Assembly (NCBI GenBank): GCA_963704705.1
Contig: OY969931.1
Span: 120,001-152,000, forward strand
Source of the DNA: an uncultured bacterium
GTDB lineage: Bacteria > Patescibacteriota > Gracilibacteria > UBA1369 > PNNO01
Direction of reading: 5' to 3'
Length of the DNA stretch: 32,000 nucleotides
Positions 1 through 19,509 of this stretch are shown one piece after another. A program made the translations under genes and the position numbers. The notes under the pieces were generated by a model. It saw only the letters and a list, made by a program, of their open reading frames with translations. It was not told the origin of the DNA and did no database searches. Position 1 is the first letter of the stretch; every line of letters starts with the position of its first letter.

Positions 1-576
1 GATTAGTACGGCGTCATACCAAGCTCTCATTTCGTGAACAAAAGTTCTGCTTTTCTGATTTGTGATGTGCGGGCAGGAGCCATCCGGGTATGCAATGAAG
101 TGGTCAGATGTTTGTGCAATTTTTAAGGTAACATATGGAAGCCCTGTTTTAATAAATTTAAAGAAAAATTGATTAAGCAAAATGCATTCTTCTTCTAAAA
201 TTCCGGTTTCAACTTCAATTCCTGCTTTTTGAAGTGCTTCCACACCTCTTCCAGAAACCTGTTTATTTGGATCAAGACTACCCACAACAACATTACTTAT
301 TTTTTCTTTGATAATTCTTTCAGTACATGGGCTTGTTTTGCCTTTAAAGCAGCATGGTTCCAAATTAACATAAAGAACTGCGCCTTCTGCCCCCCCTTTT
401 ATTTTATCCAGAGCATCGATTTCTGCATGTTTGTCTCCGAATTTATGATGATAGCCTTCGGCTAAAATTTTACCGTCTTTTACAACAACACAACCAACCA
501 AAGGATTTGGGCTTGTTAATCCCTTTCCTTTTGAAGCAAGTTCTATGCATTTTTTTATATAATCTTTTTTATCCAT
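1..576 (-). CDS. ribD: Bifunctional riboflavin biosynthesis deaminase/reductase RibD. The N-terminal 192 codons are present and the 3' end runs off the window.
   Basis: My own minus-strand translation from the ATG at 576-574 gives MDKKDYIKKCIELASKGKGLTSPNPLVGCVVVKDGKILAEGYHHKFGDKHAEIDAL...LEPCCFKGKTSPC...PYVTLKIAQTSD...VHEMRAWYDAVLI. The deaminase HAE and PCxxC zinc motifs and the start of the reductase domain are present. It is absent from the ORF track because there is no stop codon in the window. Confidence 0.85.
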   Translation of the reverse strand, partial: MDKKDYIKKCIELASKGKGLTSPNPLVGCVVVKDGKILAEGYHHKFGDKHAEIDALDKIKGGAEGAVLYVNLEPCCFKGKTSPCTERIIKEKISNVVVGSLDPNKQVSGRGVEALQKAGIEVETGILEEECILLNQFFFKFIKTGLPYVTLKIAQTSDHFIAYPDGSCPHITNQKSRTFVHEMRAWYDAVLI

Positions 577-654
577 GGCCTTCATTCTAGAAAAAATTCA
601 AAAACAATACAAATTAATGTATAATTTTTAATTGAGTATTCTTAACCGACGATT

Positions 655-945
655 ATGTACAAATGTCAGTCATGTGGATTCACATCTGAACAAGCGGGTG
701 AACATTGTGGTATGCCTATGGTAGAGGTAGCTACAACACCTACGGAAGGAGCGCCAGCTCCAGCAGAATCAGCACCAGCGCCTGAAGCGCCAGCGCCAGC
801 ACCAGCACCTGAAGCGCCAGCACCAGCACCAGCGCCTGAAGCGCCAGCACCAGCTGAACCAGCTCCGGGCACACCAGCGTCTGCGCCTGAAATGCCTGCA
901 ACTCCGGCTGCTGAGCCGCCTGTTGAAGAAAAACCTCCAATGTAA
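655..945 (+). CDS. Small protein with an N-terminal Cys-rich zinc-ribbon-like segment and a long Pro/Ala/Glu low-complexity tail
   Basis: 96-aa ORF beginning MYKCQSCGFTSEQAGEHCGMPMVE (CxxC...HC), followed by APAPE/APAPAPAPE repeats encoded by a 27-nt tandem repeat. No family was recognised. Confidence 0.5.
   Translation: MYKCQSCGFTSEQAGEHCGMPMVEVATTPTEGAPAPAESAPAPEAPAPAPAPEAPAPAPAPEAPAPAEPAPGTPASAPEMPATPAAEPPVEEKPPM
781..861 (+). repeat. 27-nt tandem repeat, about 2.8 copies, encoding PEAPAPAPA units
   Basis: The units cctgaagcgccagcgccagcaccagca (781-807), cctgaagcgccagcaccagcaccagcg (808-834) and cctgaagcgccagcaccagctgaacca (835-861) are read directly from the sequence. Confidence 0.85.
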
Positions 946-955
946 AACTAATTCA

Positions 956-1816
956 ATGCTAAAAATATTTTTAAAAGCATTTAAGGAATGGGGTAATGGC
1001 AGAGCATCAAATTATGCCGCTGCCCTTACGTTTTACGCATTATTTGCCCTTGCACCTATAATCATTATTGTGATTGCGGGTGCAGGGGCTATTTTTGGTG
1101 AACAGGCAGCAAGAGGAGAGATTGTTGTACAAATTCAATCTCTTGTTGGACACGAAATTGCTTCTGCGATTCAGGTAATTATTGAAAATGCAAATATAAG
1201 CAGCGGTAATATTATCATTGCTACTTTAAGTTTCTTATTGTTCTTATTTGCTGCAAGCAGAATAGTAACAAGTTTAAAATATGCTTTAAACAGAACATGG
1301 GATAAAGAACTAACAAGATTTAAAAAGGTCCATCACGCTATAAAATCACAATTTTTATCAATGCTCGCAATAGTCGCTTTTGGATTTTTGCTTGTTTTAC
1401 TTATTTTAGTAAGTGGAATTATGGCTACTGTATGGGTCTATTTGGCAAATTTTTTGCCAGTCGGATCATCACTGTTTCAAATTTTGAATATAATAATTTC
1501 TTTCGGTGTAATAACTTTTGTAATTGCGGCAATAAATAAATATTTACCGGATATTGAGATAGCATGGAAAGATGTTTGGATTGGTGCCGCAGTAACAACA
1601 ATACTCTTTATGCTTGGAAATTATTTGATAGGTTTATATTTGCGCAATGTTTCAGTTGGTTCGGTTTATGGAGCTGCCGGATCACTCGTGCTTATATTGA
1701 TTTGGCTTTATTACAGCTTCCAGATTTTTCTTTTCGGAGCTGAATTTACAAGGGTATATTCGGAAAACAAAGGTACATACCGTGGAATTTTTAAGAAAAT
1801 TTTAGATTTATTTTAG
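956..1816 (+). CDS. YihY/BrkB (virulence factor BrkB / RNase BN-like) family integral membrane protein
   Basis: The N-terminal signature NYAAALTFYALFALAPIIIIV is followed by multiple hydrophobic helices. The ORF track starts at a TTG at 923, overlapping the upstream ORF; the ATG at 956 (MLKIFLKAF...) is the more plausible start. Confidence 0.8.
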   Translation: MLKIFLKAFKEWGNGRASNYAAALTFYALFALAPIIIIVIAGAGAIFGEQAARGEIVVQIQSLVGHEIASAIQVIIENANISSGNIIIATLSFLLFLFAASRIVTSLKYALNRTWDKELTRFKKVHHAIKSQFLSMLAIVAFGFLLVLLILVSGIMATVWVYLANFLPVGSSLFQILNIIISFGVITFVIAAINKYLPDIEIAWKDVWIGAAVTTILFMLGNYLIGLYLRNVSVGSVYGAAGSLVLILIWLYYSFQIFLFGAEFTRVYSENKGTYRGIFKKILDLF

Positions 1817-1824
1817 ATTTTTTT

Positions 1825-1856
1825 AACAGAAATTTAATTTTTTTCTGTTTTAATTT
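1825..1856 (+). terminator. Candidate intrinsic terminator downstream of the YihY-family gene
   Basis: An 8-bp stem, aacagaaa (1825-1832) with tttctgtt (1842-1849), is followed by a T-rich tract. The stem is AU-rich and therefore weak. Confidence 0.35.
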
Positions 1857-1875
1857 AGCCCCTAACTAATAAATC

Positions 1876-2340
1876 ATGGCTGAACTTTTTCTTATTTCCC
1901 CGCATTATCCCCTTAAATTTTTACAGTTTATTAAGAAGCAGATAACAGAACAGGGGTTAAATTGTGAAGTATTAAGTTCACCAATTGAAGCGCTAACTAA
2001 AGTAAAAGAATGTTTTGGAATTAAAGCTAAGAGACTGCCTAATCTTAAAGTAATTAATTGTGGTCCCTTTAAGCTAAAACAGGCTAACTATACGCTTATT
2101 CAAAATGGTAAAACCAAACGACTTCGAAAAAAACAATTTGAATTATTACGATTTTTTATCGCTAATCAAAATCAAGTGCTTTCACGATATACAATTCTTG
2201 AAAATGTTTGGGGACCAAAAACAAATCCCTTTTCAAATACGGTTGATGTACATATTGCTGGTCTTCGAAAAATTTTAAATACAAAAGAAAAAACCTATTT
2301 AAAAACAGTTTACGCAGCCGGTTATATTTTAGAGATTTAG
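1876..2340 (+). CDS. OmpR/PhoB-type winged-helix DNA-binding protein with a truncated, degenerate receiver-like N-terminus
   Basis: The C-terminal sequence KKQFELLRFFIANQNQVLSRYTILENVWGPKTNPFSNTVDVHIAGLRKIL...YLKTVYAAGYILE matches the Trans_reg_C pattern. Only about 55 aa precede it, and there is no DD...D phospho-acceptor pocket. Confidence 0.7.
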   Translation: MAELFLISPHYPLKFLQFIKKQITEQGLNCEVLSSPIEALTKVKECFGIKAKRLPNLKVINCGPFKLKQANYTLIQNGKTKRLRKKQFELLRFFIANQNQVLSRYTILENVWGPKTNPFSNTVDVHIAGLRKILNTKEKTYLKTVYAAGYILEI

Positions 2341-3549
2341 CAGATAATTATATGCTTCCTTAAGCTGACTATCATATTCATCACCTTCCTGCATATCAAA
2401 TTTAATTACTCTGTCAGGCATGATTCCGGTCTCATCAATATCGCGGCCTTTAGGTGTAAGCCATTTTGCAATTGTAAGACGCAGACTTGAACCATCATCA
2501 AGTAGTTCAACTTCCTGCACACTGCCTTTTCCAAATGTCTGTTCTCCAATAATCAACCCTCTTTGATAATCCTGAATCGCCCCTGCAAGTATTTCAGATG
2601 CTGAAGCAGAACCATTATTAACAAGTACAACCAATGGTAAATCAGGCAGTCTTGCATTTCCTAAAACCTGAATAGATTCATCTAAATCAGCATTTCGTGT
2701 AACAATTTCAACCGCATCTTTATTGCCATCCAGAAATTCCGACACAATATCCACTGCAATATCAAGATAGCCTCCGCCGTTAAATCTCAAATCCAAAATC
2801 AAACCTTTCGGATTATCAAGCAATATTTGCTGCACAGCATTATCAAATTCAGTTGTTGTATCATCGCTGAACTGACTGATAGCAACATAACCTATATCAC
2901 CATCAAGAAGTTCATAGTAAACGCTGTCTTCATTGATTGTATCGCGTGTAATAGTGACTTCAAAAGGCTCTTCAACATCTTTGCGAATAATAGTTAAAGT
3001 TACATCAGTTCCTTTCTCGCCGCGAATCGCCATGATTGCTTCAAAAAGAGTCATATCGCTTGCCACTGCACCGTTAATTGAAAAGATTGTATCTCCCGGC
3101 ATCAAACCAGCTTTTTCAGCCGGCGAATCTTTTAATGGTGAAATTACAACCAGCATGCCATCTTTTACAGTAAGCTCAGCGCCAATTCCTTCAAGATTTC
3201 CATTTAAACTTTGTTCAAAGTCTTTCGTTTCATCAGGTGTCATAAATACCGTGTATGGATCGTCAAGTGATTCAACGAGCCCTTTTATCGCTCCATAAAC
3301 AAGAGTTTGATCATCCTGAAGTTTGGTTTCACGAAGATATGATTTGTCGAGTTTATCCCAAACTTTCCAAAATAATCCGAGATCAACCGACTGCGGATTG
3401 TTAAAATCCTGAACCACAACATCACCATTTTCCTGAACAGTTATTGTAGGTTGATTCGAGTAATAATAATATTCCGAAGCTTTCCATCCAATTGCAAAAA
3501 TCAGAATGAAAGAAAGAATTGTAAAAAAAAGTTGTTTTTTAGCGTACAT
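2329..3549 (-). CDS. ctpA: S41 family C-terminal processing peptidase (membrane anchor, PDZ domain, S41 catalytic domain)
   Basis: N-terminal TM helix; PDZ segment GIGAELTVKDGMLVVISPLKDSPAEKAGLMPGD; catalytic Ser region NNGSASASEILAGAIQD; Lys region TFGKGSVQ. Confidence 0.9.
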   Translation of the reverse strand: MYAKKQLFFTILSFILIFAIGWKASEYYYYSNQPTITVQENGDVVVQDFNNPQSVDLGLFWKVWDKLDKSYLRETKLQDDQTLVYGAIKGLVESLDDPYTVFMTPDETKDFEQSLNGNLEGIGAELTVKDGMLVVISPLKDSPAEKAGLMPGDTIFSINGAVASDMTLFEAIMAIRGEKGTDVTLTIIRKDVEEPFEVTITRDTINEDSVYYELLDGDIGYVAISQFSDDTTTEFDNAVQQILLDNPKGLILDLRFNGGGYLDIAVDIVSEFLDGNKDAVEIVTRNADLDESIQVLGNARLPDLPLVVLVNNGSASASEILAGAIQDYQRGLIIGEQTFGKGSVQEVELLDDGSSLRLTIAKWLTPKGRDIDETGIMPDRVIKFDMQEGDEYDSQLKEAYNYLLNL

Positions 3550-3552
3550 ATT

Positions 3553-4350
3553 TTAATTGTTATCAAAGTTTTGAATAATCGGAGTGATATTTTCAGCTTT
3601 GCCATCGGTATCATTAATTTCTATAAGTACTGCGTTAAACGTTGTTGGCCCTTCAGCTATATCATATTTAAAAGGCATTTGTGTTAAAAAGCCTTCGATT
3701 ATATCTTCTTTTTTCGCTCCGATAATTGAATCGCTCGCTCCAACCATTCCAATATCAGTTATATAAGCTGTGCGGTTATTTAAAATTTGCGCATCAGCTG
3801 TTGGTACATGAGTATGCGTGCCAACAACTGCACTTACACGATCACTTAAATAATGAGCCAAAGCAATTTTTTCAGATGTTGCTTCTGCGTGCATATCAAC
3901 AATAATTGCCGTAGGCTGATCACCTTTTGTTTCCTGAATAATTTCGTCAGCCTTTCTAAAAGGGCAGTCATAATTTTCTTTAATAAAAACTCTTCCATGC
4001 AGATTTAAAATAAGAATTTTCTGCATTTTTGCTGTTTCGTATATGTGATATCCGCGCCCTGGATTTCCCGGAGGAAAATTTGCGGGACGAATTACCGGAA
4101 AGCTTTTATCGTTTAATTTTTCAACAACGGTTCGGTTATCGAAAATATGATTTCCCGAAGTAAAAAAATCAATTCCAGCCTGCTGCATCTCTTTAATCGA
4201 CTCTTCAGACATACCTCTGCCATGAGTAAGATTCTCGCCGTTTGCAAGAACAAGGTCGGGCTGATGCTCTTCTTTTAGCTTTGGAAGTACTTTTTTTACT
4301 GTTTCTCTTCCGGGTCTGCCAACAATGTCTCCTATAAAGATAATTTTCAT
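3553..4350 (-). CDS. ymdB: YmdB-like metallophosphoesterase (2',3'-cyclic-nucleotide phosphodiesterase family, TIGR00282-like)
   Basis: MKIIFIGDIVGRPGR...DLVLANGENLTHGRGM...FTSGNH...DMHAEATSEK...VGTHTHVPTAD. These are the characteristic calcineurin-like metal ligand motifs, in the YmdB order. Confidence 0.85.
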   Translation of the reverse strand: MKIIFIGDIVGRPGRETVKKVLPKLKEEHQPDLVLANGENLTHGRGMSEESIKEMQQAGIDFFTSGNHIFDNRTVVEKLNDKSFPVIRPANFPPGNPGRGYHIYETAKMQKILILNLHGRVFIKENYDCPFRKADEIIQETKGDQPTAIIVDMHAEATSEKIALAHYLSDRVSAVVGTHTHVPTADAQILNNRTAYITDIGMVGASDSIIGAKKEDIIEGFLTQMPFKYDIAEGPTTFNAVLIEINDTDGKAENITPIIQNFDNN

Positions 4351-4488
4351 CAGACACGATTTTATTAAAACTTTAGTTTGCTTATCAAAATGCGAAATCT
4401 AGCTTATCATATTTTAGGTTTTTTTTAAAAATATTTTAAAAAGTTATGTTATTCTTTACGCGTAAATTAATTTTTAACGCCCCTTGAA

Positions 4489-5019
4489 ATGGATCAAATA
4501 TTAGGAATTTTTATAAATTTCCTTGTGTTCATAAGTGACAGAACAGACTGTCCAGAAACACATTATGTTAGATATAATTATGAGTATGAGGTGCCGGAAG
4601 GGCTGAATGTAAGGAATGAATGGGGTGCCCGCGGTCCATTTACAGTTGATGATGGATTTGGTAATTCGATGTATATTGGATTTTTAAATTCAGATTCAAT
4701 AGAAGAAAACATTAATTGGTATAGAGAAGCTGAATATATGACAGTATTAGATGAATCACCAATTGGAGAAGATGCATATAAAGTAATTTTAGATAATCCA
4801 AGTCTATATGATCCTTATAATGAAATTATGTGGGTTAAAAATTCTAAAGGGTTTGTTGTAATGACAATGTTTAATCAGGGCGATCCTTCCAAGCATGCTG
4901 CTTTTGAGGAGAATGCCCTTCAATTGGCACGTTCAGTCGTGCAAGGAGATCCGTATGAGACACGGAAAAATCGCGATTGTGATCACCCTTCTCTTTGGGA
5001 TTTGCTTCCTAGGTGGTAA
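4489..5019 (+). CDS. Hypothetical protein whose last ~48 codons are encoded by compositionally foreign DNA (chimeric or truncated 3' end)
   Basis: 176-aa ORF with no recognised domain. Codon usage switches from AT3-rich to GC3-rich at about 4876 (cag ggc gat cct tcc aag...). The ORF then overlaps the M23 gene and its RBS. Confidence 0.4.
   Translation: MDQILGIFINFLVFISDRTDCPETHYVRYNYEYEVPEGLNVRNEWGARGPFTVDDGFGNSMYIGFLNSDSIEENINWYREAEYMTVLDESPIGEDAYKVILDNPSLYDPYNEIMWVKNSKGFVVMTMFNQGDPSKHAAFEENALQLARSVVQGDPYETRKNRDCDHPSLWDLLPRW
4943..4948 (+). promoter_or_regulatory. Canonical Shine-Dalgarno (AAGGAG) 6 nt upstream of the M23 peptidase ATG
   Basis: The sequence reads gcAAGGAGatccgtATG. Almost all other genes in the window lack such a motif; rpsP has a weaker AAAGGA. 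Confidence 0.6.
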
Positions 5020-6001
5020 AGCAAATTCCAGCCCACTCATCTTCATGCCCTTCGAATACGGCGGGTACTGGTACTGTCCGCAGGGGCAAAACGGCACCTA
5101 CACCCACAATACGGATCGTTTGCGATACGCTATCGATCTGAACGGCGGGCACGGTGTCGACAACGATGCCTTCGGTGAACAACTCTTTGCTCCAGTCAAT
5201 GGAACAATCGTCGAAGTTCGTGATGGCCTCATGGATTTTGACAACAATGGAAGCAGCAATGCTGCCAACTACTACGGCTGGGGCAATACCATCGTCATCC
5301 TGGACGAAGGAGGGGACTACTACATTCGGTTTGCTCACATGAAGTATCTCTCAACCGAACACCTGATGAAAGGTGACGAGGTGAAGATGGGTGACTACAT
5401 CGGCCAGGTTGGTCAGACCGGACATTCCACCGGCTCCCATCTTCATATCCAGGTCATGCTCAAGACGCAGGAGTGGAATGATATCATCGGAGAGGATTCC
5501 TCCCCCTTCACCTTCGCCGAGGGCTACATCGACACTGGTGACTGGATCAAGTCTGGCCTCAGCTACAACATGTCCATGCTGGACAACAACGGCGAGACCA
5601 CGCTCAGTCATTTTTTTGATGACTACTATACCTACTACAACTCCACTCAGTGGCAGACCAAGTACGGTACATACGGCTACGCAGGCAAGGACTTTCGTCG
5701 GCACTACGTTTCTTCGTACAACGACAATTCCATGTTCAGCTGGCACTTCTCTGTGAAGCAGTCCAGTCTGTATATGCTGTTCGTTACGTTCGAGGACAAC
5801 GCAGCCAACGACACCAAAGTCGAGTATTATCTCGACGGTCAGAAAATCAGGACGCTCACCCAAAAAGTGGGCGGGCAATTCTACAAGTACATCGGCCTCC
5901 GCTACATCAGCGCCGGTGCTTCGCACACTGTTTCGGTTCGCGGCACTTCGCCTGGCAAATACGTGATCGCTGATGCACTGGTGCTGCGGAAGTTTGGCTG
6001 A
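4955..6001 (+). CDS. Secreted M23 family metalloendopeptidase (lysostaphin/LytM-like) with a non-catalytic C-terminal beta-rich domain
   Basis: Signal peptide MRHGKIAIVITLLFGICFLGGKA. M23 core YAIDLN...YIRFAHMKYL...GDYIGQVGQTGHSTGSHLHIQV (HxH motif). The C-terminal ~140 aa end in KYVIADALVLRKFG, which is reminiscent of golvesin-C-like or carbohydrate-binding modules (low confidence). The ATG at 4955 is preferred over the track start at 4895. Confidence 0.85.
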   Translation: MRHGKIAIVITLLFGICFLGGKANSSPLIFMPFEYGGYWYCPQGQNGTYTHNTDRLRYAIDLNGGHGVDNDAFGEQLFAPVNGTIVEVRDGLMDFDNNGSSNAANYYGWGNTIVILDEGGDYYIRFAHMKYLSTEHLMKGDEVKMGDYIGQVGQTGHSTGSHLHIQVMLKTQEWNDIIGEDSSPFTFAEGYIDTGDWIKSGLSYNMSMLDNNGETTLSHFFDDYYTYYNSTQWQTKYGTYGYAGKDFRRHYVSSYNDNSMFSWHFSVKQSSLYMLFVTFEDNAANDTKVEYYLDGQKIRTLTQKVGGQFYKYIGLRYISAGASHTVSVRGTSPGKYVIADALVLRKFG

Positions 6002-6008
6002 TAACTGT

Positions 6009-6055
6009 CGTACTACCGAAATCCCGTACTAGTACTACGGATTTACGATAGTACG
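6009..6055. repeat. Imperfect ~47-bp inverted repeat built from four GTAC motifs, centred on the perfect palindrome GTACTAGTAC (6026-6035)
   Basis: The sequence is cGTACtaccgaaatcccGTACtaGTACtacggatttacgataGTACg. The outer arms cgtacta (6009-6015) and tagtacg (6049-6055) are exact complements. Confidence 0.6.
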
Positions 6056-6067
6056 CAATATAACCTT

Positions 6068-6112
6068 AAAGGCACGGTAAACAACCTGTTTGTTTTGCTG
6101 TGCCTTTTTTTA
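6068..6112 (+). terminator. Rho-independent terminator of the M23 gene
   Basis: The stem aaaggcac (6068-6075) pairs with gtgccttt (6100-6107). An inner pairing joins aaacaa and ttgttt. A T-run follows at 6105-6111. Confidence 0.75.
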
Positions 6113-6138
6113 ATTACGGATGTTGTTTATACGCACTC

Positions 6139-6209
6139 CATCCCCGGGGATGAACTGTAAATTCCGCATAAATAAACTCAATGCCAAATCTAATCTCCTC
6201 CCGGGAGGA
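6139..6209. repeat. Two perfect 14-bp GC-rich palindromes 57 bp apart: CATCCCCGGGGATG (6139-6152) and TCCTCCCGGGAGGA (6196-6209)
   Basis: Both are exact reverse-complement palindromes read from the sequence. They lie between the island terminator and the pcrA stop. Function is unknown. Confidence 0.6.
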
Positions 6210-6262
6210 AAATGTTTAGGCAAATGAATGGCGCATAAACAGCAATTTTTTAGCAATTTTCG

Positions 6263-8452
6263 CTATTCCTCTATCTTAACCAACGGCGCCACACTCAAAG
6301 CCAAACGCTTTATTCCAACAGCCGCATCTTTAAAGGCAATCGTGGCTACTTCACCTTGAACACTAACAACTACTCCTTCACCGAAAGTTGTGTGAATAAC
6401 CCGGTCGCCGTCACGCAAATCAATGCATGTTGAAACTTCTTCTTCCGGAACAGCCTTCATTGAGCCGCCAAGTCCAGCCATGAATCCGCCGCCAACAGAC
6501 ATATGAGTTCGCGGCTGTCCATAAATATAAACCAAAGCATCAGGTATATCTCCGATAAACTGCGAAGGCGCATTTGACTGAGCTTCTCCGTATAGCATTC
6601 TCTGGCGGGCATTAATCAAAAATAGTCTTTCCATTGCTCGGGTAATCGCCACATACATTAAGCGTCTTTCTTCTTCGAGCTCTTCAGGCTCGAGCATTGA
6701 ACGCGAATGCGGAAAAATTCCTTCTTCAAGTCCAATAATAAATACATTATCAAATTCAAGGCCTTTTGCGCTGTGAACAGTCATTAATACAACAGCGTTT
6801 TCTTTGTCATCCATTGAATCCACGTCGCTGATCAACGAAATTTCCTCTAAAAATACCGAAAGGCTAACCCCCGGATTTAGCAAATCATACTTTGAAGCAA
6901 CTGAAATTAATTCCGCGATGTTTTCGTAGCGTGCTTCGCCTTCAGGCGTGCCGTCCATAACAAACTCGCGGTAGCCCGATAATTTAAGTACGTGTTTGAT
7001 AACACCGCTTGCGGAAAATTCGTCATTTGCTTTTTTGAGCTGCTCAATTAATTTCACAAACTTTTTTATTGCTGCAATTTTGCCATCGTTAAGGTCGCTT
7101 ATTTCTTCGCATCTGCGCATTGCATCGTAGAATGATAACCCGTTTCGCCCCGCGTGTGTTTGCAAAGCTTCAATTGTTTTTGTGCCGATTTTGCGTGCCG
7201 GAGTGTTGATTATTCGGAGCAAGCTAACTGAGTCAGCAGAGTTTTGAACAACACGTAAGTAAGCAACCATGTCTTTAACTTCTTTTCGTTCGTAGAATCT
7301 TATCCCTCCAACGATTTTATATGGCAGGCCGTATCTTAAAAACACTTCTTCAATTGCGCGCGATTGTGCGTTTGTTCTGTATAAAACAACAAATTTATTG
7401 TATGGAGGAGCTTCATAATCTGCTGTGAGCTCACGTATTTTTTCAGCGATTAATTCGCCTTCGTGGCGTTCGTTTCTTGCTTCGATCACAGTGATTTTTT
7501 CTCCGCCTTCTTTTTCTGTCCACAATTTTTTGTCTTTTCGTTTTCTGTTTTTAACAATGATTTCGTGCGCAGCTTCAAGAATGATTGAAGTTGATCTGTA
7601 ATTTTGCTCCATCATTACAATTTTCGCATCAGGATAATCTTTTTCAAAATCCAGAATATTTCGGATATCAGCGCCGCGCCAACTGTAAATGCTTTGGTCG
7701 CTGTCACCGATTACACAAATATTTCTGTACTTTTCAGCAAGCAATTTAACAAGAGTATACTGCGCATGATTGGTATCCTGGTACTCATCCACGCAAATAA
7801 ATTTAAATTTTTCCTGATAATAATCGAGCACATCCGGATTTGCCTGAAAAAGCTCAATTGTTTTCATTAATAAATCATCAAAGTCGAGCGCATTATTTTT
7901 TCGTAAAGCATCCTGATAAGGCCCGTATAATTCGGCAACACGCTCGGTAAAATAATTGTGCGCCATTGATAAATATTTTTCAGGGTCAATAAGTTCGCTT
8001 TTCGCATTTGAAATATGATTCAAAATCGCTTTTGGATTTATCTGTTTTGAATCGATATGCCTTTCTTCCATCAGTCTTTTCATAAGGATTTGCTGGTCCG
8101 CAACATCGTAAATAGTAAAATTATTTTCATAATCGAGTAAGTGTAAATTTCGTCTTAAAATCCTTACGCAAGTCGAGTGAAAAGTGCCCACAGTTGGTTC
8201 ACTTGTTAAATTCGAACCTTCCAATAGCTTTTTTATTCTTTCTTTCATTTCATTGGCAGCCTTGTTCGTAAAAGTCACAGCCAGAATATTCCAGGGTGAA
8301 ATACCATGTTTTTTTATAAGATAAGCAACACGATGAGTCAGCGCGCGGGTCTTGCCGGAGCCGGCTCCCGCAATAATAATCAGCGGCCCAAGCTCGTGGG
8401 TAACCGCTTCTTTTTGCTTATCGTTCAAGTTTTTTAGGATTGCTTCCGGCAT
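6263..8452 (-). CDS. pcrA: ATP-dependent DNA helicase PcrA/UvrD (SF1)
   Basis: Walker A AGAGSGKTRALTHRVAYLI, DEYQDT motif, YRS, VMTVHSAKGLEF and a C-terminal Tudor-like GDRVIHTTFGEGVV. The protein is 729 aa. Confidence 0.92.
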   Translation of the reverse strand: MPEAILKNLNDKQKEAVTHELGPLIIIAGAGSGKTRALTHRVAYLIKKHGISPWNILAVTFTNKAANEMKERIKKLLEGSNLTSEPTVGTFHSTCVRILRRNLHLLDYENNFTIYDVADQQILMKRLMEERHIDSKQINPKAILNHISNAKSELIDPEKYLSMAHNYFTERVAELYGPYQDALRKNNALDFDDLLMKTIELFQANPDVLDYYQEKFKFICVDEYQDTNHAQYTLVKLLAEKYRNICVIGDSDQSIYSWRGADIRNILDFEKDYPDAKIVMMEQNYRSTSIILEAAHEIIVKNRKRKDKKLWTEKEGGEKITVIEARNERHEGELIAEKIRELTADYEAPPYNKFVVLYRTNAQSRAIEEVFLRYGLPYKIVGGIRFYERKEVKDMVAYLRVVQNSADSVSLLRIINTPARKIGTKTIEALQTHAGRNGLSFYDAMRRCEEISDLNDGKIAAIKKFVKLIEQLKKANDEFSASGVIKHVLKLSGYREFVMDGTPEGEARYENIAELISVASKYDLLNPGVSLSVFLEEISLISDVDSMDDKENAVVLMTVHSAKGLEFDNVFIIGLEEGIFPHSRSMLEPEELEEERRLMYVAITRAMERLFLINARQRMLYGEAQSNAPSQFIGDIPDALVYIYGQPRTHMSVGGGFMAGLGGSMKAVPEEEVSTCIDLRDGDRVIHTTFGEGVVVSVQGEVATIAFKDAAVGIKRLALSVAPLVKIEE

Positions 8453-8524
8453 AATCTGCGCACTTTAAAAATTACAGTCGGAAACTGATTATAACCTAAA
8501 AGTCCTATATAAAAAATATCAAGT

Positions 8525-9505
8525 TTACGGATGCACCCAAACAGGTGTACCAACATCAGTGAAGTCGTATGCGAATTCCGCGTCCTGAGGCAAAAGCCTG
8601 ATGCAACCGTGACTTCTTGGCTGACCAATGTGGCTTAATGCTTCACTCCAAAAATATCCGTTATCCCATGAAATACTTGGAAGTGCATGAATGCCATAGC
8701 CGCCAGCCCTGAAGTTCATCCATTTCGGCATTATGTAGTGAGGCCATGCAGCGCTTACACGAACTTCCTGTTTATAATAAATTTGAGTATTTCCATATGG
8801 CGTTGGGGTTGCCCATTTACCTGAACTAACAGGGAATTCACGTATTATAATGTCGCCTATTTTTAGGAACATTTTTTGCTCCGAAATGTCCACTTCAATT
8901 GACTTTGCTCCGTTAAAATCTTCATCGCTTACTTTTTTTGATTCATTAACATAATTCAAGAATTCTCTGTTTTCATTCATATATTCGCCAACATCAAAAT
9001 TTACAGCAAAAGGTTTTTCAATCCATTTCTGTCCTTCTACGACAATATCAAAAAATTCTCTGTAAACTCCTTTTTCATAAGGTACTTTAATATCAAATGT
9101 AAATGAACCTTTTTCTCCAGGTTTAACAACCGCCTGATCCAACTCGATTCTGCTTGGAGAGATCCAGTCAGTATAGAATACACTTTCTCTGTCTTTCCAT
9201 TTATCAGTTCCAAGTCTTGTTAAAGGCCTGAAATTACATCCGCTTTTATCCGAAAACATAGGAATTGTACCTGTGTTTTTAAAGTAAATTGTAACCTGTT
9301 CAATCGCGCCTGGGGTAAGTGTAAGCTTCTTTTTTGACCCAAGGTATTCAAAATCATAATTCAAATTAACATTTTCATCATATTGATAAGAGCAGATGTC
9401 AGGTTGCGCAGTTACATAATCCTGAGCCATAACCGTAAAATTTCCGAACACAAATATTGCAATAGCGGTTGTAAGTCCAAATCCAAATATTAAAAGTTTT
9501 TTCAT
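8525..9505 (-). CDS. Secreted L,D-transpeptidase (YkuD domain) with an N-terminal Ig-like/beta-sandwich domain
   Basis: Signal peptide MKKLLIFGFGLTTAIAIFVFGNFTVMA. The catalytic motif is GIHALPS...SHGCIRLLPQDA. Confidence 0.85.
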   Translation of the reverse strand: MKKLLIFGFGLTTAIAIFVFGNFTVMAQDYVTAQPDICSYQYDENVNLNYDFEYLGSKKKLTLTPGAIEQVTIYFKNTGTIPMFSDKSGCNFRPLTRLGTDKWKDRESVFYTDWISPSRIELDQAVVKPGEKGSFTFDIKVPYEKGVYREFFDIVVEGQKWIEKPFAVNFDVGEYMNENREFLNYVNESKKVSDEDFNGAKSIEVDISEQKMFLKIGDIIIREFPVSSGKWATPTPYGNTQIYYKQEVRVSAAWPHYIMPKWMNFRAGGYGIHALPSISWDNGYFWSEALSHIGQPRSHGCIRLLPQDAEFAYDFTDVGTPVWVHP

Positions 9506-9559
9506 ACATTTGTGTTTTTATTTTTATATATAATATTGTACAATAATTTTGCTTTATTG

Positions 9560-10015
9560 TCAATTATTCTGAGCTTTTAATTTTTCTAATTCTTCCTGGA
9601 AACTAGCCACATCTTTAAAACTTCTATAAACCGAAGCGAATCTTATATATGCAACTTCATCAAGTTTTTTTAATTCTTCCATTATTCCTTCGCCAATAAC
9701 ATCAGAAGGTACCTCTTTGCCGTAGTTTCTCCATCTTTCTTCAAGATTTTGGATTATCCCGTCAACCTGAGCCTGAGTAACAGGTCTTTTTTCGCATGCC
9801 CTCCAAATACCCTTGCGCACTTTTTCCTGAACATAAGGTTCACGCGAATCATTTCGCTTAATCACAATCAAATTATTGTGTTCCAGACGTTCAAAAGTAG
9901 TAAACCTTAGTTTACAATCCGGGCACTCGCGTCTTCGTCTTGTTGACTTGCCTTCTCCGGTCTCGCGCGAATCAAGAACACGAGTATTTTTAGCTTTGCA
10001 TTTGGGACATTTCAT
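9560..10015 (-). CDS. nrdR: Transcriptional repressor NrdR (zinc ribbon plus ATP-cone)
   Basis: MKCPKCKAKNTRVLDSRETGEGKSTRRRRECPDCKLRFTTFERLE, followed by an ATP-cone. The first 26 nt overlap the end of the upstream dgt-like gene. Confidence 0.95.
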   Translation of the reverse strand: MKCPKCKAKNTRVLDSRETGEGKSTRRRRECPDCKLRFTTFERLEHNNLIVIKRNDSREPYVQEKVRKGIWRACEKRPVTQAQVDGIIQNLEERWRNYGKEVPSDVIGEGIMEELKKLDEVAYIRFASVYRSFKDVASFQEELEKLKAQNN

Positions 10016-11159
10016 CTACTTCTTGTTGAGTAATAATATTATGCTTTAAAGCTTGATCAATGGCAAACCGATCTGTCATGCCGGCAACATAATCTCTCAC
10101 CACCAATAAGTTATTGCGTTCATTGCCTTCAATAATTCTTTCAGAATAATGCTTTTGCATTTCGTTTGGATTTTTAAGATAAAAATCAAAAAGAGGACCA
10201 ATTATATGATCAGCAATTTTAAGTAATTTAACAACGATAGAACTATTATATAAATTTTCCACTAAAAATTCCCTTGCTTCCTTAAGCTCTTCCAAAAATT
10301 CTTTACTATGAGTTATTAATTTTTCTTTTGCATTTCTTACATCTGCAACAGTTTCAATATGATTTCTTTTTAGATTAACAACACTTGCATCTTCAACTTC
10401 GTGCATTAATACATGCACTATTGAGCTTACAACTTTGGAAATATAATTAACTTCATCGGCTGGTTCAGGAGTATCTTTAAAGGCAAATTCATGTGCTCTT
10501 TGCCAAAGTTTCAATTTTTTTACTTCATCAAGTTTTAAAATTCCCGCTTTAAGGCCATCTTTAAGATCATGTGCTGTATATGCAATTTCATCAGCCAAAT
10601 CAACGACCTGAGCTTCCAAAAGCGGCTTAGGCCCATCTTTTTCATATCTGTTTGTAATCGGATCATGCGGGCTTTCATGCTTTAAATAACCCTCAAGAGA
10701 TTCTTCGCTTAACCCCAGATTTTTGCAAATTCGCCAGCTTTGTTTATTGTGATCAAACCCTTCTGCAATGCCTTTTTCTTTAAGCTTTTTATCAAGAATT
10801 TTCTCACCTTTATGCCCGAAAGGAGTGTGCCCCAAATCATGCCCCATGGCTATTGCTTCAGCCAAATCATGATTCAACCTTAAAAGTTTGCAGAGGCCTT
10901 TGGCAATTGATCTAACTTGATCTGTATGTGTGCTTCTTGTTCTGAAATGGTCATGATAATAAGAAGGAAAAACCTGCGATTTACCCTGCATTCTGTCATG
11001 TGCCTCGCTATAAAGAATTACATCCTGGTCATGATGAAAAACAGTCCTTTCATCTTTGGGTTTTGTTTTAGAATCCTTACTTTTAAATGCATATCCTGCA
11101 AGGATTTGCATTTCATGTGCTTCTAATTCTTGTCGCGTACATGTAGCAGTGAATTCCAT
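9990..11159 (-). CDS. dgt: dGTP triphosphohydrolase-like HD-domain protein
   Basis: RTRSTHTDQVRSIA...MGHDLGHTPFGHKGE...DLADEIAYTAHDLKDG...RDYVAGMTDRFA. These are the typical Dgt/HD phosphohydrolase family motifs. Confidence 0.85.
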   Translation of the reverse strand: MEFTATCTRQELEAHEMQILAGYAFKSKDSKTKPKDERTVFHHDQDVILYSEAHDRMQGKSQVFPSYYHDHFRTRSTHTDQVRSIAKGLCKLLRLNHDLAEAIAMGHDLGHTPFGHKGEKILDKKLKEKGIAEGFDHNKQSWRICKNLGLSEESLEGYLKHESPHDPITNRYEKDGPKPLLEAQVVDLADEIAYTAHDLKDGLKAGILKLDEVKKLKLWQRAHEFAFKDTPEPADEVNYISKVVSSIVHVLMHEVEDASVVNLKRNHIETVADVRNAKEKLITHSKEFLEELKEAREFLVENLYNSSIVVKLLKIADHIIGPLFDFYLKNPNEMQKHYSERIIEGNERNNLLVVRDYVAGMTDRFAIDQALKHNIITQQEVDEMSQMQS

Positions 11160-11224
11160 TTTATTACATTAAAAGTGTTATTGGTGTTGAATTATTGCAT
11201 AATAATCGTATGTTTTCAAGAAAG

Positions 11225-12190
11225 TTATGCAACCAGACTTTTACCGCCAATACCGCCCATTTCACCACTGCCTGTAGTGCGCATATAAATTTTCGCAGCA
11301 GGGGAGTCCTCAGGATAAAGAGTTGCAGGATCCTGCATTACATCAACAACATAATATTTACCATCTTCCATCATCACAATGTTCCATGCGTGCCCGAAAC
11401 CTTTTTTATAAAAATGACCTCTAATCAAACGCGATCTTATGCCATTTACATCAGCAAGCAGCTTATATAAAATCGCTCTGTGTCGGCAAACCCCAAAAGA
11501 CAAATCACCTAATTTAACTTTTTGAGTATTTCGTTTTTTCATTATTTTTTCAATTTCATCCTCGGTATCTTCTTCGATTTTTGGGTTTCTTGAGCCTCCA
11601 AAATGATTAGACACAAACATAGCAAGAGCAGAGATTTTTTGTTTTTGTGTAGAGAAATTGCTTAACCATTTTTTTGATTCTTCGATGATTATATTTAATT
11701 TATGATCATTTTCAACATCAACAACGATCACTTCTCTGTTTGGAGATATTGGCTCATATTTCCCTTTTTTATTTCTTTCATATTTCATTTTTCTGCCACC
11801 ATCAACAAACCCATTTGGAATTCTGTCTGCAAAATCCAAAAACCCTTTTTTTAAATAATCCAGACTCACTTTTCTATCTTTAACTTCACTGTCATAACCT
11901 ATAACTTTATATAAAGATCTTTGTGTTAAAAATGTAATTTCACCGCTTTTAGGATCAACACTAATCTGGCGGATAGGACTTAGTTGGTCGCCCTCTTTAA
12001 ATGTCATAACTTCACCTACTCTAACTGTACTTAAAACCTTCCCTCTAATAAAATCGCCGATAGATGTAATGGTGTGCTTTTCGTTATCCAATTGCAGTTT
12101 TCGAACTGTTATTTCAGCTCCTTTGGGAATAAGAATCTGGGTGTAATCAGAATCGCTATGCGCAGGATCTAATAATATTTTTTCATGCAT
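11225..12190 (-). CDS. Hypothetical protein with a C-terminal transglutaminase-fold, EDR1/CTR1-N-terminal-like putative cysteine peptidase domain
   Basis: The segment FVSNHFGG...LGDLSFGVCRHRAILYKLLADVNGIRSRLIRGHFYKKGFGHAWNIVMMEDGKYYVVDVMQDPATLYPED follows the pattern I recall for plant EDR1/CTR1 N-terminal domains (HMGG...G.CRHRALLFKVLAD...R.V.G...N......Y.VDLM..PG.L.P.D). Candidate Cys, His and Asp residues are all present. Confidence 0.6.
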   Translation of the reverse strand: MHEKILLDPAHSDSDYTQILIPKGAEITVRKLQLDNEKHTITSIGDFIRGKVLSTVRVGEVMTFKEGDQLSPIRQISVDPKSGEITFLTQRSLYKVIGYDSEVKDRKVSLDYLKKGFLDFADRIPNGFVDGGRKMKYERNKKGKYEPISPNREVIVVDVENDHKLNIIIEESKKWLSNFSTQKQKISALAMFVSNHFGGSRNPKIEEDTEDEIEKIMKKRNTQKVKLGDLSFGVCRHRAILYKLLADVNGIRSRLIRGHFYKKGFGHAWNIVMMEDGKYYVVDVMQDPATLYPEDSPAAKIYMRTTGSGEMGGIGGKSLVA

Positions 12191-12301
12191 TTTTGTTTGT
12201 TTTTGTTGATTAAATTATACCATAAAATAAGTTTTTCGCCAATAGCGGTGCATTTCCCTCTCAACCCAGTCGTCCTGGTCGACCCATCCGAGCGAGAAAT
12301 A

Positions 12302-12330
12302 TTGTGCAAAATTCGCACACGCGCTAAAAT
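12302..12330 (+). promoter_or_regulatory. Candidate sigma70-type promoter (TTGTGC-17 nt-TAAAAT) placed so that transcription would start at or next to the recombinase ATG, giving a leaderless mRNA
   Basis: -35 at 12302-12307 and -10 at 12325-12330, with the ATG at 12337. There is no SD between them. Confidence 0.3.
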
Positions 12331-12336
12331 ACGGAT

Positions 12337-13251
12337 ATGGACAAACTTTCGCAACACATTCGCAAATTTCTTGAGCATGTTGAGGTTGGCAAAAACCAAT
12401 CCCAAAAAACCATCGAAAACTACAACCACTACCTCACGCGATTTCTTGAGTGGTATGGAGACAAACAACCACACCAAATAAAACTCGACGACATACACAA
12501 ATATCGGCTTTATCTAAACCGATATGCTGATGATCGCGGAAGAACTCTTGGCGTAAAAACGCAAAATTATCATATAATTGCACTTCGGGCTTTTCTCAAA
12601 TATCTCACAAAAAACGATATTGCCACGCTTCCGCCTGAAAAAATCGACCTTCAAAAAATTCCGGAAAGAACAGTAGAGTACCTGACCCGTGAAGAGCTCG
12701 AGCGGCTTTTTAAAGCAATTAATGCAAACACTATTAAGGGCAGGCGCGACCGCGCAATTGTTGAAACTCTCTATTCAACCGGGCTTCGTGTTAGCGAGTT
12801 GGTGAGCCTGAATCGTCAGCAGGTTGATCTTAAACGAAAAGAATTTATGGTCAGAGGAAAGGGCAGAAAGCCACGCATTGTTTTTCTGTCAGAACGTGCC
12901 GCAAAATTTATTAAGGATTATTTGGATGAACGCCGTGATAATTTTGATCCGCTTTTTATTAATCATGGCAGAAGCAGAAAAGGCGATGATATAACTTTGG
13001 GAGAGAAAAAGCGATTAACCACTGTTTCAGTGCAGAATGTAGTTAGAAATACAGCTTTAAAAGCAGGTATAATTAAAAAAGTTACACCGCATGTTCTCAG
13101 GCATTCATTTGCAACCGAGCTGCTTCTTAACGGCGCAGATATCCGTTCGGTTCAGGAAATGCTTGGTCATGCTTCAATCACGACTACGCAAATTTATACG
13201 CATGTAACTAACAAGCGTCTAAGAGAAATCCACGAGAAGTTTCATAGATAA
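12337..13251 (+). CDS. xerC: Tyrosine site-specific recombinase, XerC/XerD type
   Basis: N-terminal SAM-like domain plus the catalytic domain RDRAIVETLYSTGLRVSEL...HVLRHSFATELLLNGADIRSVQEMLGHASITTTQIYTHV (R..HxxR..H..Y). XerC and XerD cannot be told apart by eye. Confidence 0.88.
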   Translation: MDKLSQHIRKFLEHVEVGKNQSQKTIENYNHYLTRFLEWYGDKQPHQIKLDDIHKYRLYLNRYADDRGRTLGVKTQNYHIIALRAFLKYLTKNDIATLPPEKIDLQKIPERTVEYLTREELERLFKAINANTIKGRRDRAIVETLYSTGLRVSELVSLNRQQVDLKRKEFMVRGKGRKPRIVFLSERAAKFIKDYLDERRDNFDPLFINHGRSRKGDDITLGEKKRLTTVSVQNVVRNTALKAGIIKKVTPHVLRHSFATELLLNGADIRSVQEMLGHASITTTQIYTHVTNKRLREIHEKFHR

Positions 13252-18582: not shown

Positions 18583-19509
18583 ATGAAAAAACCAAATTTT
18601 AATCCAATGTTCTACAGTTTAAATCTTTATAAGATTTTTAAGCCTGGAGAAAAGCCGAATGAACCAACTTCAGTAAAAGCTGAAAGCATTGAAAAGAAAG
18701 AAATAACTAATGAAGACAGAACAAAAGTGCTTGATTACATTTCTACTCGAGCTTCAATAATTCAAGGTAAATCAGCTGAAGCACATGGAATATTTGAAAA
18801 AAATGCGAGTACGTTTCAATTTACTAAGGGTTTTGTAAAAGTAAAGAAAGAATTAGAGACCCTTAAAAGTGCTGCGGCTAGAAAAATATACTCAATGCGT
18901 GAAATAAAAGAACTTGAAGCTTATCAAATCGTACTTTTAAAGAATCTCGATAAAATTGAAAGAGACATCGATACTTTAAAAAATAAAATCGAATTACATA
19001 CTAAACTTAAAGAAAAAGCACAGGAAGAAATCAAAAGACATTTGGATAATTGGGAAAATGATGTTCCTCCGGGTATTAAAAAAGCTGCTTCACGAAGAGA
19101 AGTATTAATAGTTGTAACAGGTTATATCGGCAGATGGTATAAAGTTAATTCTGCTGCGATTGATAGAATTACTGATATGGCTGATAGCGGTATTATTCTT
19201 AATGGTTTTAATCAAAATCCACCTAAAGGGGAACTGTTTGAAGATTTAAAAACTCTTAATAAAGAAATTGAAAATGAAGTATATGCCAGATGGATTACCG
19301 GGCTTGAACATAAAGACGTATTAAGAACTGTTTTCAGTAAACTTGGGTGGGAAGATAAATTTATCAAAGAGATTAAGGATATAAAATTAAGAAAATTAGT
19401 TCAGGAATTTAATGAAAGCAGACAGATTGGATATAATCGTGGAGCCAGAAAAGATTATAAGGATATTGTAGATGCATTGGTTAATTATATCGGAAGAGCA
19501 CCAAGATAA
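18583..19509 (+). CDS. Hypothetical Lys-rich coiled-coil-like protein (308 aa), possibly the N-terminal part of a disrupted larger gene
   Basis: It shares the N-terminal motif (MK..N..N.P.F....L..F...GEKP) and the 17-nt leader with the 20501 gene. The frame stays open for 82 codons beyond its TAA. Confidence 0.6.
   Translation: MKKPNFNPMFYSLNLYKIFKPGEKPNEPTSVKAESIEKKEITNEDRTKVLDYISTRASIIQGKSAEAHGIFEKNASTFQFTKGFVKVKKELETLKSAAARKIYSMREIKELEAYQIVLLKNLDKIERDIDTLKNKIELHTKLKEKAQEEIKRHLDNWENDVPPGIKKAASRREVLIVVTGYIGRWYKVNSAAIDRITDMADSGIILNGFNQNPPKGELFEDLKTLNKEIENEVYARWITGLEHKDVLRTVFSKLGWEDKFIKEIKDIKLRKLVQEFNESRQIGYNRGARKDYKDIVDALVNYIGRAPR

Follow-up and report, generated by a model that had tools for sequence, protein, structure and literature searches.

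Why does a single gene stand out so sharply in base composition from the AT-rich genome around it, and what keeps it that way? This question is raised by a gene for an M23-family peptidase (hereafter M23), which occupies positions 4955-6001 of a 32,000-nucleotide stretch of contig OY969931.1 (positions 120,001-152,000; hereafter the window, to which all coordinates refer). The G+C content (GC) of the gene is 0.519, compared with 0.366 in the remainder of the window and a window mean of 0.371, and the richest other 1047-nt segment reaches 0.438 (mean 0.364, standard deviation 0.034). A first-pass annotation had taken the gene for an island recently acquired from a high-GC donor, with a chimeric assembly as the alternative. 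We compared the locus with related contigs and lineages (denoted by L-numbers). With high confidence, which covers both statements jointly, the gene is the second member of a vertically inherited unit, orfX-M23, located between ymdB and pcrA in a clade of Candidatus Peregrinibacteria/Peribacteria, and its product is predicted to be a Sec-exported lysostaphin-type zinc peptidoglycan endopeptidase with a CBM6/35-like module. The GC enrichment of the gene is synonymous, bounded by the coding sequence (CDS) and maintained. As the best explanation overall, we tentatively propose a resident orfX-M23 unit whose excess of GC at third codon positions (GC3) is held by selection on the transcript.

Residency of the orfX-M23 unit

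The gene order ymdB-orfX-M23-pcrA, in which orfX is the open reading frame (ORF) at 4489-5019 overlapping the start of M23, recurs in 20 Peregrinibacteria/Peribacteria lineages, two single-cell genomes included. On contigs long enough to judge, the shared order is fuller, with genes for BrkB, a Trans_reg_C regulator, an S41 peptidase, YmdB, orfX and the M23/Golvesin_C protein, followed on the opposite strand by those for PcrA, YkuD, NrdR and an HD-domain protein. Identity to the window M23 protein is 85-45% among the nearest homologues (tblastn) and falls to 27% across the syntenic lineages, and M23 divergence broadly follows that of the flanks. An empty site had been anticipated in sister genomes; M23 occupies the orfX-pcrA site in 20/20 lineages examined. 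Moreover, GC-rich homologues are found at the same site in related low-GC genomes, an observation that the first-pass annotation had itself named as speaking against recent transfer.

To define the range of the family, 185,579 species genomes (one per species) were scanned. As a result, 16 full-length loci were found, all from AT-rich Patescibacteria and labelled Candidatus Peregrinibacteria, Peribacteria or Patescibacteria group, with one short contig labelled Saccharibacteria. The flanking orfX is present at the same site in 12 of these 16 loci, the remaining four contigs being too short to judge. An exhaustive profile search of 1.84 billion representatives, a library that carries no organism names, gave ~30 full-length clusters at 50% identity, and all 35 close homologues have the M23 plus Golvesin_C architecture. 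Outside the family, the matches cover only the generic M23 core, with 30-45% identity over ~100 aa. An exact look-up of the M23 protein returned no record; that of the window NrdR led to contig L065. Viral contigs scanned with the family alignment contained no relatives, and a phage origin of M23 was rejected on this ground. Thus, neither the homologue searches nor the genome and viral searches found a donor clade, and the homologues lie at the resident site on all contigs long enough to judge.

The assembly is continuous across the locus. Window positions 1-12618, and with them both junctions of the GC-rich stretch, are matched at 100% identity by Logan contig L065 (run ERR11571143), and sister lineage L001 was assembled identically from four runs. 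Since the two single-cell genomes also carry the same architecture, a chimera is excluded. Different runs gave identical contigs for a given lineage, leaving no polymorphism for a frequency spectrum.

The features of the locus are as follows, with the basis of each in brackets.

4351-4488, plus strand: AT-rich (GC ~0.27) intergenic region between the divergent ymdB and orfX, presumed promoter region of orfX-M23
4489-5019, plus strand: orfX, 176 aa, putative exported partner protein of a family without a name (synteny, conserved Cys, model)
4870-4950, plus strand: conserved C-terminal motif of orfX, GDPSKHAAFEENALQLARSVVQG (best-conserved block, two alignments)
4927-4942, plus strand: 5-bp hairpin GCACG-N6-CGTGC, abutting the Shine-Dalgarno (SD) sequence on its 5' side (covariation, 16 orthologues)
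4943-4948, plus strand: SD sequence AAGGAG, 6 nt before the ATG (present in 20 orthologues)
4955-6001, plus strand: GC3-rich CDS of the M23 endopeptidase with Golvesin_C, 348 aa (Pfam, GC3)
4955-5026, plus strand: predicted signal peptide, aa 1-24, cleavage after GKA (by inspection; n/h/c layout in 20 orthologues)
5045-5524, plus strand: lysostaphin-type M23 catalytic domain, coinciding with the mosaic block (invariant residues, fold matches)
5636-5986, plus strand: Golvesin_C / CBM6-35-36-like beta-sandwich, putatively targeting cell-wall glycan (Pfam PF25275, model)
6006-6057, plus strand: first hairpin of the 3' untranslated region (UTR), free energy (dG) -18.4, z -3.7 (folding)
6068-6113, plus strand: intrinsic terminator, a hairpin with 14-bp arms (6068-6107) followed by U7, dG -19.6, z -5.7 (folding, inverted repeat)

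Much of the earlier description of these features stands. The GC counts of 17/60 at 4741-4800 and 34/60 at 5101-5160 are exact, the strong terminator lies where it had been placed, and the composition does switch inside the ORF at 4489-5019: GC steps up at ~4865-4895, around the proposed position of ~4876 and ~60-90 nt 5' of the M23 start codon. A single ORF, from the ATG at 4955 to a TGA-TAA end at 5999-6004, fills the GC-rich stretch. It is the interpretation of the switch that has to be abandoned. The last ~48 codons of the ORF at 4489-5019 had been considered foreign, the result of an insertion that replaced its native 3' end. This tail is the best-conserved segment of orfX: the block GDxxxHxxFExxAxxLARSxxQG, encoded at 4870-4950, was recovered in two independent alignments, with F139, E140 and G153 invariant and H136 and R148 nearly invariant. 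A recent single-gene insertion of this kind, or a chimera, would account for the sharp GC change and for an expression unit that looks self-contained. With synteny and the orfX tail conserved in all loci examined, an identical independent assembly over both junctions and the same arrangement in single-cell genomes, we regard it as hardly credible. The junctions carry no direct repeats and no mobility genes, only short imperfect chance repeats, and the nearest tRNA gene, the only one in the window, is at 30631; tRNA was also the only RNA family found in an Rfam search. A XerC-like gene at 12337-13251 is syntenic in 8/9 lineages reaching that far and is absent in L006. In this gene family, the window has a 304-aa, intein-free XerC/D-like recombinase; the syntenic XerC/D-like tyrosine recombinases of L010 (11506-13689) and L063 (7676-9859) are 727 aa long, with an intein (Intein_splicing and LAGLIDADG_3) in the catalytic domain.

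The GC excess is synonymous, bounded by the coding sequence and maintained

By codon position, the GC of M23 is 0.50 (GC1), 0.38 (GC2) and 0.68 (GC3). The first two values are normal; the GC3 of the 29 other genes in the window is 0.16-0.37. M23 exceeds its neighbours in GC3 in 20/20 lineages (0.37-0.86 in the orthologues, neighbour medians 0.23-0.45) and is a GC3 outlier in 17 of the 20, the excess being weak in L014, L016 and L021. In the clear lineages the GC3 z score is 3.7-20, and L060 and L063 reach 0.84 and 0.70 with flanks of 0.28-0.39. Averaged over 18 loci, GC climbs at the SD/ATG and is at baseline again no more than 30 nt past the stop codon. Along the genes themselves, GC3 is flat at ~0.65 in M23 and flat at ~0.35 in PcrA. 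A regional GC effect was therefore rejected, as PcrA has no GC3 gradient by distance from M23 and GC3 does not rise in orfX.

The shift extends to every codon family. At four-fold sites pooled from 18 loci, M23 has A.16, C.32, G.28 and T.25, and the neighbours have.31,.16,.18 and.36, respectively. The codons so favoured are the rarest of the genome, with CTG/CTC at 0.31/0.30 versus 0.09/0.08 and AAG at 0.58 versus 0.21. M23 could in principle be an extremely highly expressed gene that uses optimal codons, and its strong SD, its C-ending NNY codons, favoured as in FtsZ, and a sweep towards NNC in L060 that includes G>C changes would fit such translational selection. However, FtsZ prefers only NNC (0.61), with a four-fold GC of 0.20 and G-ending Lys, Glu and Gln (K/E/Q) codons at 0.21, and the codons of ribosomal protein S16 are unbiased. 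Four-fold and K/E/Q GC is not raised in S16, FtsZ, FtsA or the pilin-like gene, whereas all three classes are elevated in M23 (0.67 for NNC, 0.65 for four-fold sites and 0.61 for G-ending K/E/Q codons), and G-ending codons exceed C-ending ones in M23 of several lineages. Ordinary codon optimisation was therefore rejected by comparison with FtsZ, S16 and FtsA, and with M23 drawing on the rarest codons, translational selection of this form is quite improbable.

The excess cannot simply be a relic either. Four-fold sites of the window M23 match those of L005, L009, L010 and L011 at 0.24-0.32, where saturation would give 0.21-0.29, and even the closest relatives have a flank synonymous divergence (dS) of 0.5-0.6. 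A single ancient transfer to the clade ancestor, from a GC-rich donor that uses SD sequences, would therefore have ameliorated. Such a transfer would explain the foreign look of an SD and GC-rich codons in a genome that is AT-rich and SD-scarce, and also why silent sites in three lineages are now losing GC (see below). With GC3 high despite saturated silent sites between lineages, at 0.83-0.86 in some of them and rising in L060, and with GC1 and GC2 host-like, we judge it very improbable. The persistence of the excess in lineages with complete turnover of silent sites indicates instead that a gene-specific force renews it.

An antisense overlapping gene was also considered as the cause. Long antisense ORFs in the exact reverse-complement frame of M23 are interrupted in 18/20 orthologues (mean ~4 stops, range 0-13). 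Since this is the number predicted from the depletion of NNA codons, the antisense ORFs are a by-product. They nevertheless mislead annotation, because high GC3 clears stops from the reverse-complement frame and enriches its first codon positions in G: gene callers put antisense ORFs in place of M23 in L061 (5501-6412), L063 (1941-2459) and L065 (6693-7268). The sense M23 is full-length in L061 and L063 (tblastn), and L065 is identical to the window. Our searches of the literature on Peregrinibacteria with M23 and on Patescibacteria with GC3 returned nothing on this phenomenon, and those on golvesin and on SD use in Peregrinibacteria yielded background only, on the CBM domain class and on SD scarcity (cited below).

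The window contains a second GC spike, at 701-900 (0.62), which is unrelated to the M23 anomaly. Its source is the Ala/Pro-rich tail of the small protein encoded at 655-945 (plus strand; 96 aa, with a zinc-ribbon-like CxxC...C start at the N-terminus and an APAPE-repeat tail). As the amino-acid composition of this tail accounts for the spike, its reading as a second island was rejected.

Expression signature, allele exchange and the cause of the excess

M23 also differs from most genes of its genome in how its message begins and ends. A strong SD (AAGGAG, GGAGG or AGGAGG) lies 4-9 nt before the ATG in 20/20 M23 orthologues, including four lineages in which the site is intergenic. In the window, most starts lie in A/T-rich leaders and an SD core of at least 5 nt precedes only 3/31 genes, namely M23 (AAGGAG), S16 (AAGGA) and a 108-aa ORF (GAGGT). 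Among the SDs of the window, the AAGGAG at 4943-4948 alone reaches 6 nt, which bears out its earlier description as canonical and otherwise scarce. The relative Ca. Peribacter riflensis is likewise SD-scarce, with 7% SD genes (PMC10783764), and bS21 is frequently lost in the phylum (PMC9297842).

The hairpin at 4927-4942, immediately 5' of the SD, is paired in 88.8% of cells across 16 orthologues, compared with 78.8% in shuffles (0/500 reach the observed value) and 5-54% when the partner column is slid. Its pair 20-31 is G-C in 8 sequences, A-U in 6 and U-A in 1, which are compensatory changes. These data give moderate support for conservation of the hairpin, from few independent events. Downstream, a terminator hairpin with a T-run (dG -17 to -25) follows M23 in 17/20 orthologues and is weaker in L021, L025 and L027; its stem sequence is almost the same throughout the subclade of the window, and among lineages with saturated silent sites. 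Two further sequence elements were observed in this region. Many M23 orthologues (for example L001, L013, L015, L010, L007, L017, L018, L021) have AGGAGG or GGAGGAA ~10 nt upstream of the terminator hairpin, and the window has a palindrome, CCTCCCGGGAGG, at 6194-6211, between the terminator and the pcrA stop. On the promoter side, the best sigma-70-like match in 4351-4488 is weak (4382-4410, 9/12).

Two unrelated genes share the combination of AAGGAG and a GC3-rich CDS. The first, at 12128-12415 of L060, encodes a hydrophobic membrane protein of 95 aa with GC3 of 0.80 and belongs to a lineage-specific insertion between M23 and pcrA (11919-12415, plus strand). It has a perfect sigma-70 promoter of its own (TTGACA-17-TATAAT) and AAGGAG 8 nt before the ATG, within surrounding DNA of GC 0.23-0.31; judged from its sequence, the product could be a holin-like or immunity-like partner. 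The second, at 47-706 (minus strand) of L014, has a homologue at 59-736 (minus strand) of L016. These proteins are 219-225 aa long, 36% identical and without a Pfam match, and their genes carry AAGGAG 7 nt before the ATG, with GC3 of 0.74 and 0.54, respectively, in genomes of ~0.26-0.37. Both contigs end ~50 nt beyond.

M23 is a mosaic produced by allele exchange through homologous recombination. Nucleotide identity between the window and L001 is ~0.90 across the locus, yet drops to 0.47-0.82 over 5050-5520, and dS is 1.9 in the N-domain versus 0.39 in the C-domain and 0.5 in the flanks, with an unchanged ratio of nonsynonymous to synonymous divergence (dN/dS) of ~0.1. The nearest neighbour among four close relatives switches along M23, and L063, the outgroup by its flanks, is no more distant in the catalytic domain. 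It is from these shifting local relationships that allele exchange follows.

Silent changes in L060 amount to a directional sweep. Polarised silent changes in its M23 (GC3 0.84) are weak-to-strong, that is from A or T to G or C (W>S), by 13:1. A run of ~70 codons has become entirely G/C-ending (block GC3 0.98), with G>C changes alongside T>C and A>G. Nearly all differences between this block and its relatives are W>S or G>C, strong sites being otherwise unchanged. The sweep outpaces flank dS, and GC-neutral processes do not predict it.

These observations bear on two further explanations. The resident gene may have been overwritten repeatedly, whole or in blocks, by GC-rich alleles from a GC-richer host, another lineage or a mobile element, and ameliorated between imports. 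The mosaic, whose phylogeny conflicts with that of the flanks, the GC-rich L060 block, the strong-to-weak decay seen in three lineages and the GC-rich small gene inserted beside M23 in L060 are all in line with such recurrent import, and recombination limited to the homologous CDS would explain steps at the gene ends. However, no GC-rich carrier was found, as the 16/16 full-length loci from the genome scan are AT-rich and viral copies are absent from the contigs scanned, and relatives outside the family share only the 30-45% identity given above. In addition, the L060 block resembles directional change in place rather than a saturated foreign allele, and the promoter region of the inserted small gene is AT-rich and host-like. 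We therefore consider recurrent import unlikely, though less so than the other rivals weighed here.

GC-biased gene conversion (gBGC) would make M23 a recombination hot spot in which biased repair of heteroduplexes pushes silent sites to G/C. It has in its favour the evidence for recombination within M23, the rise of both G and C in all codon families, the constraint on GC1 and GC2, which leaves only GC3 to respond, and the episodic, lineage-specific dynamics. A conversion tract should not, on the other hand, stop exactly at the CDS ends, and orfX, the 3' UTR and PcrA show no bleed. Nor does gBGC predict GC-neutral patterns such as the G>C changes and the preference for C over G in the subclade of the window, and the L060 small gene bears the same signature without having a homologue to convert against in the other loci compared. 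We know of no bacterial gBGC shifts as large as the +0.2 to +0.5 in GC3 of M23, those known to us being far smaller. On balance, gBGC appears improbable.

The cause that we favour, somewhat more guardedly than the overall account of the locus, is selection acting on transcripts or coding sequences in a small class of genes that are SD-led and GC-coded, since the step falls at the CDS ends, GC-neutral G>C changes occur and the signature recurs in unrelated genes. The M23 mRNA would belong to a small set of SD-led, GC-coded messages within an SD-scarce, AT-coded genome. A 5' hairpin with a strong SD, an A/U-poor body and a strong terminator would set the stability or the translation mode of these messages apart from those of bulk mRNA, and such tight control would suit a potentially self-lytic or antagonistic enzyme. 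Allele exchange within M23 would spread GC-rich blocks between lineages, and AT-biased mutation would erode them between exchanges.

Several observations weigh against selection on the transcript. Polarised silent changes are predominantly strong-to-weak (S>W) in the window (14:2), L001 (14:1) and L063 (23:6), so that the window gene is now decaying towards genomic GC3. Constant selection at equilibrium would not give this decay; fluctuating selection or episodic renewal is needed. The GC3 of M23 also differs greatly from lineage to lineage (0.37-0.86), with hardly any elevation in L016 and L021. So far, the class with both SD and high GC3 is represented by three families in ~300 kb of sequence. 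Finally, Ca. Peribacter riflensis lacks a conserved CCUCC (PMC10783764), and pairing of the window AAGGAG with an anti-SD is only presumed.

A bolder extension, which we consider doubtful, is that Peregrinibacteria keep an orthogonally coded expression class of a few GC-ending, SD-led genes, in which silent sites and SD serve as a regulatory device and the shuffling of alleles is typical of an arms race. Its members would be the M23 wall hydrolase, the 95-aa membrane protein of one lineage and the ~220-aa protein of others. Coding and SD together would make the survival or translation of the mRNA depend on a particular state of ribosome, tRNA or RNase, and a lytic or antagonistic enzyme would thereby stay silent until required.

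The encoded proteins and their likeness to known systems

The reading of M23 as a secreted endopeptidase, already made in the first-pass annotation, is well supported in each of its parts. Pfam assigns Peptidase_M23 (PF01551) to aa 74-173 with 55.2 bits (cut-off 28.7), and the predicted zinc ligands and catalytic residues H51, D61, H128, H162 and H164 are invariant in 25 sequences. The first zinc motif has the spacing H-x9-D instead of HxxxD, and the HLH motif (HLHIQ) aligns with APHLHFQ of lysostaphin. The model of the N-domain, although of moderate quality (block-mean pLDDT 54-88 for aa 71-170), matches lysostaphin, LytM, ShyA, Csd1/2 and zoocin A with a Foldseek probability of 1.0. The suspected C-terminal binding domain is Golvesin_C (PF25275; aa 228-344, 41.3 bits, cut-off 31.6), modelled as a beta-sandwich with block-mean pLDDT 67-97. 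Its fold matches include 6f2p (the C-terminus of a Paenibacillus xanthan lyase), 7ehg and 3zm8, as well as MiXBM, CBM35 and CBM6, and the sequence match to residues 909-1038 of the Paenibacillus xanthan lyase has an E value of 2.7e-6. The CBM6-CBM35-CBM36_like_2 domain class, which occurs in the Bacteroides lectins Cbeg4/5, xanthan lyase and golvesin, is described as carbohydrate-binding (PMC9166713). By analogy, the module probably targets wall glycan.

The N-terminus, MRHGKIAIVITLLFGICFLGGKA followed after the cleavage site by NSS, has by inspection the n/h/c layout of a Sec signal peptide, composed of MRHGK, IAIVITLLFGICFLG and GKA, with cleavage before N. In 20/20 orthologues, a K/R-rich start precedes a hydrophobic leader with the consensus A-x-A, cleaved before DPL. 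Given the conserved residues, the fold matches and this leader, M23 is predicted to work as a secreted lysostaphin-type endopeptidase with a glycan-binding targeting module.

The neighbouring orfX is present in all loci as a protein of 132-211 aa with an N-terminal hydrophobic helix and two near-invariant Cys (Cys21 and Cys164 in the window). The helix and the two Cys are consistent with export of the product to the same compartment as M23. The last 65 nt of orfX (22 codons) overlap the start of M23 in a different reading frame. In 14/18 loci, orfX ends 11-77 nt before the codon for the invariant M23 Cys41, and thus within the region encoding the signal peptide, which begins ~120 nt 5' of that codon. 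DNA conservation in the locus peaks around the overlap (4902-5081), where nucleotide identity is 0.86-0.94 in all pairs. A 12-nt inverted repeat (92% complementary, 11-nt loop) at 4996-5030 surrounds the orfX stop within the part of M23 that encodes the signal peptide, and may have a bearing on translational coupling.

The orfX family has 16 database members, with no Pfam match and no sequence homology to a known immunity or adaptor family. An AlphaFold model (pLDDT 76) has an alpha/beta core weakly resembling the PsbP/Mog1/DUF1795 type, with weak fold matches to PsbP, LpqN and EagT6 (TM 0.36-0.42); EagT6, SciW and Tsi3 are among the low-ranking matches. The dN/dS is 0.19-0.31 for orfX, 0.10-0.13 for M23 and 0.03-0.10 for the flanks. 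Because of their adjacency, overlap and joint fast evolution, orfX probably acts with M23 as a partner, inhibitor or immunity factor.

Elsewhere in the window, three successive genes at 18583-22783 (plus strand; 308, 223 and 760 aa), without Pfam match, have the lowest GC of the window (~0.30-0.32) and a strong positive AT skew; they adjoin a FemAB-family gene and lie upstream of ftsZ/ftsA. A small protein encoded at 26947-27309 (minus strand) matches T4SS_pilin (PF18895), and its gene is ~360 nt from that for ribosomal protein S16, with the 108-aa ORF between them.

The locus demonstrates that a sharp single-gene GC island with its own ribosome-binding site (RBS) and terminator can be an ancient resident, which codon-position analysis and synteny distinguish within minutes, and that a GC3 anomaly misleads gene callers. 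Silent sites lying 0.2-0.5 above genomic GC3 across a clade despite saturation are direct evidence of a strong gene-specific force, of a kind usually assumed negligible in slow-growing, small-genome bacteria. The coupling of GC3 with a conserved SD in an SD-scarce phylum points to an unrecognised translational or mRNA-level control, and the locus offers a compact test case for the long-standing question of whether selection, biased conversion or import lies behind bacterial GC content. With the fast-evolving orfX, M23 is in addition a candidate for how putative episymbionts remodel or attack cell walls. The enzyme is of a known kind; unusual, and so far unexplained, is the persistent gene-specific synonymous enrichment that accompanies a conserved SD in a lineage where SDs are scarce.

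Compared with known systems, M23 resembles a genomic island in its atypical composition (GC 0.52 versus 0.37, GC3 z = 7) and in having its own RBS and terminator. It differs in occurring at the same site in all relatives examined, in being atypical only at codon position 3 and in having borders without mobility genes or repeats and no donor found. Membership among horizontally acquired islands was therefore rejected, the gene showing neither absence from the site in relatives nor border mobility, foreignness at all codon positions or a donor clade.

As an enzyme, M23 resembles lysostaphin, zoocin A and LytM, which have a signal peptide, an M23 zinc domain and a C-terminal targeting module in the same order; the H...D, the catalytic His and the HxH are kept, and these proteins are the top sequence and fold matches among solved structures. 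However, the targeting module of the window protein is a Golvesin_C/CBM6-35-like beta-sandwich rather than SH3b, its first zinc motif is H-x9-D rather than HxxxD, the neighbouring orfX encodes a small exported protein rather than a FemABX-type immunity enzyme, and the gene is chromosomal, core and syntenic clade-wide rather than plasmid- or strain-specific. The C-terminal module itself resembles the Golvesin_C / CBM6-CBM35-CBM36_like_2 domains of xanthan lyase, MiXBM and Cbeg4/5 in its Pfam score above the curated threshold and its beta-sandwich model, but is fused here to a peptidase, not to a glycan-active enzyme, and is not a free lectin.

As a pair, orfX and M23 recall hydrolase effector-immunity and effector-adaptor pairs, such as Tse/Tsi of the type VI secretion system (T6SS) and the DUF1795 Eag chaperones, in that a small, adjacent, co-oriented gene overlaps translationally, both genes evolve faster than their flanks and the orfX model is PsbP/DUF1795-like. 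They differ in that orfX has no sequence homology to these proteins and its likeness in fold is weak, and in that secretion-system genes are not adjacent. Finally, with a strong SD where SDs are rare, a hairpin directly before this SD and a strong terminator after the gene, M23 resembles the SD-bearing special genes of SD-scarce bacteria and the mRNA stabilisers formed by 5' stem-loops or STAB-SD sequences; to our knowledge, none of the described cases couples an SD with GC-rich synonymous coding throughout the gene, as M23 does.

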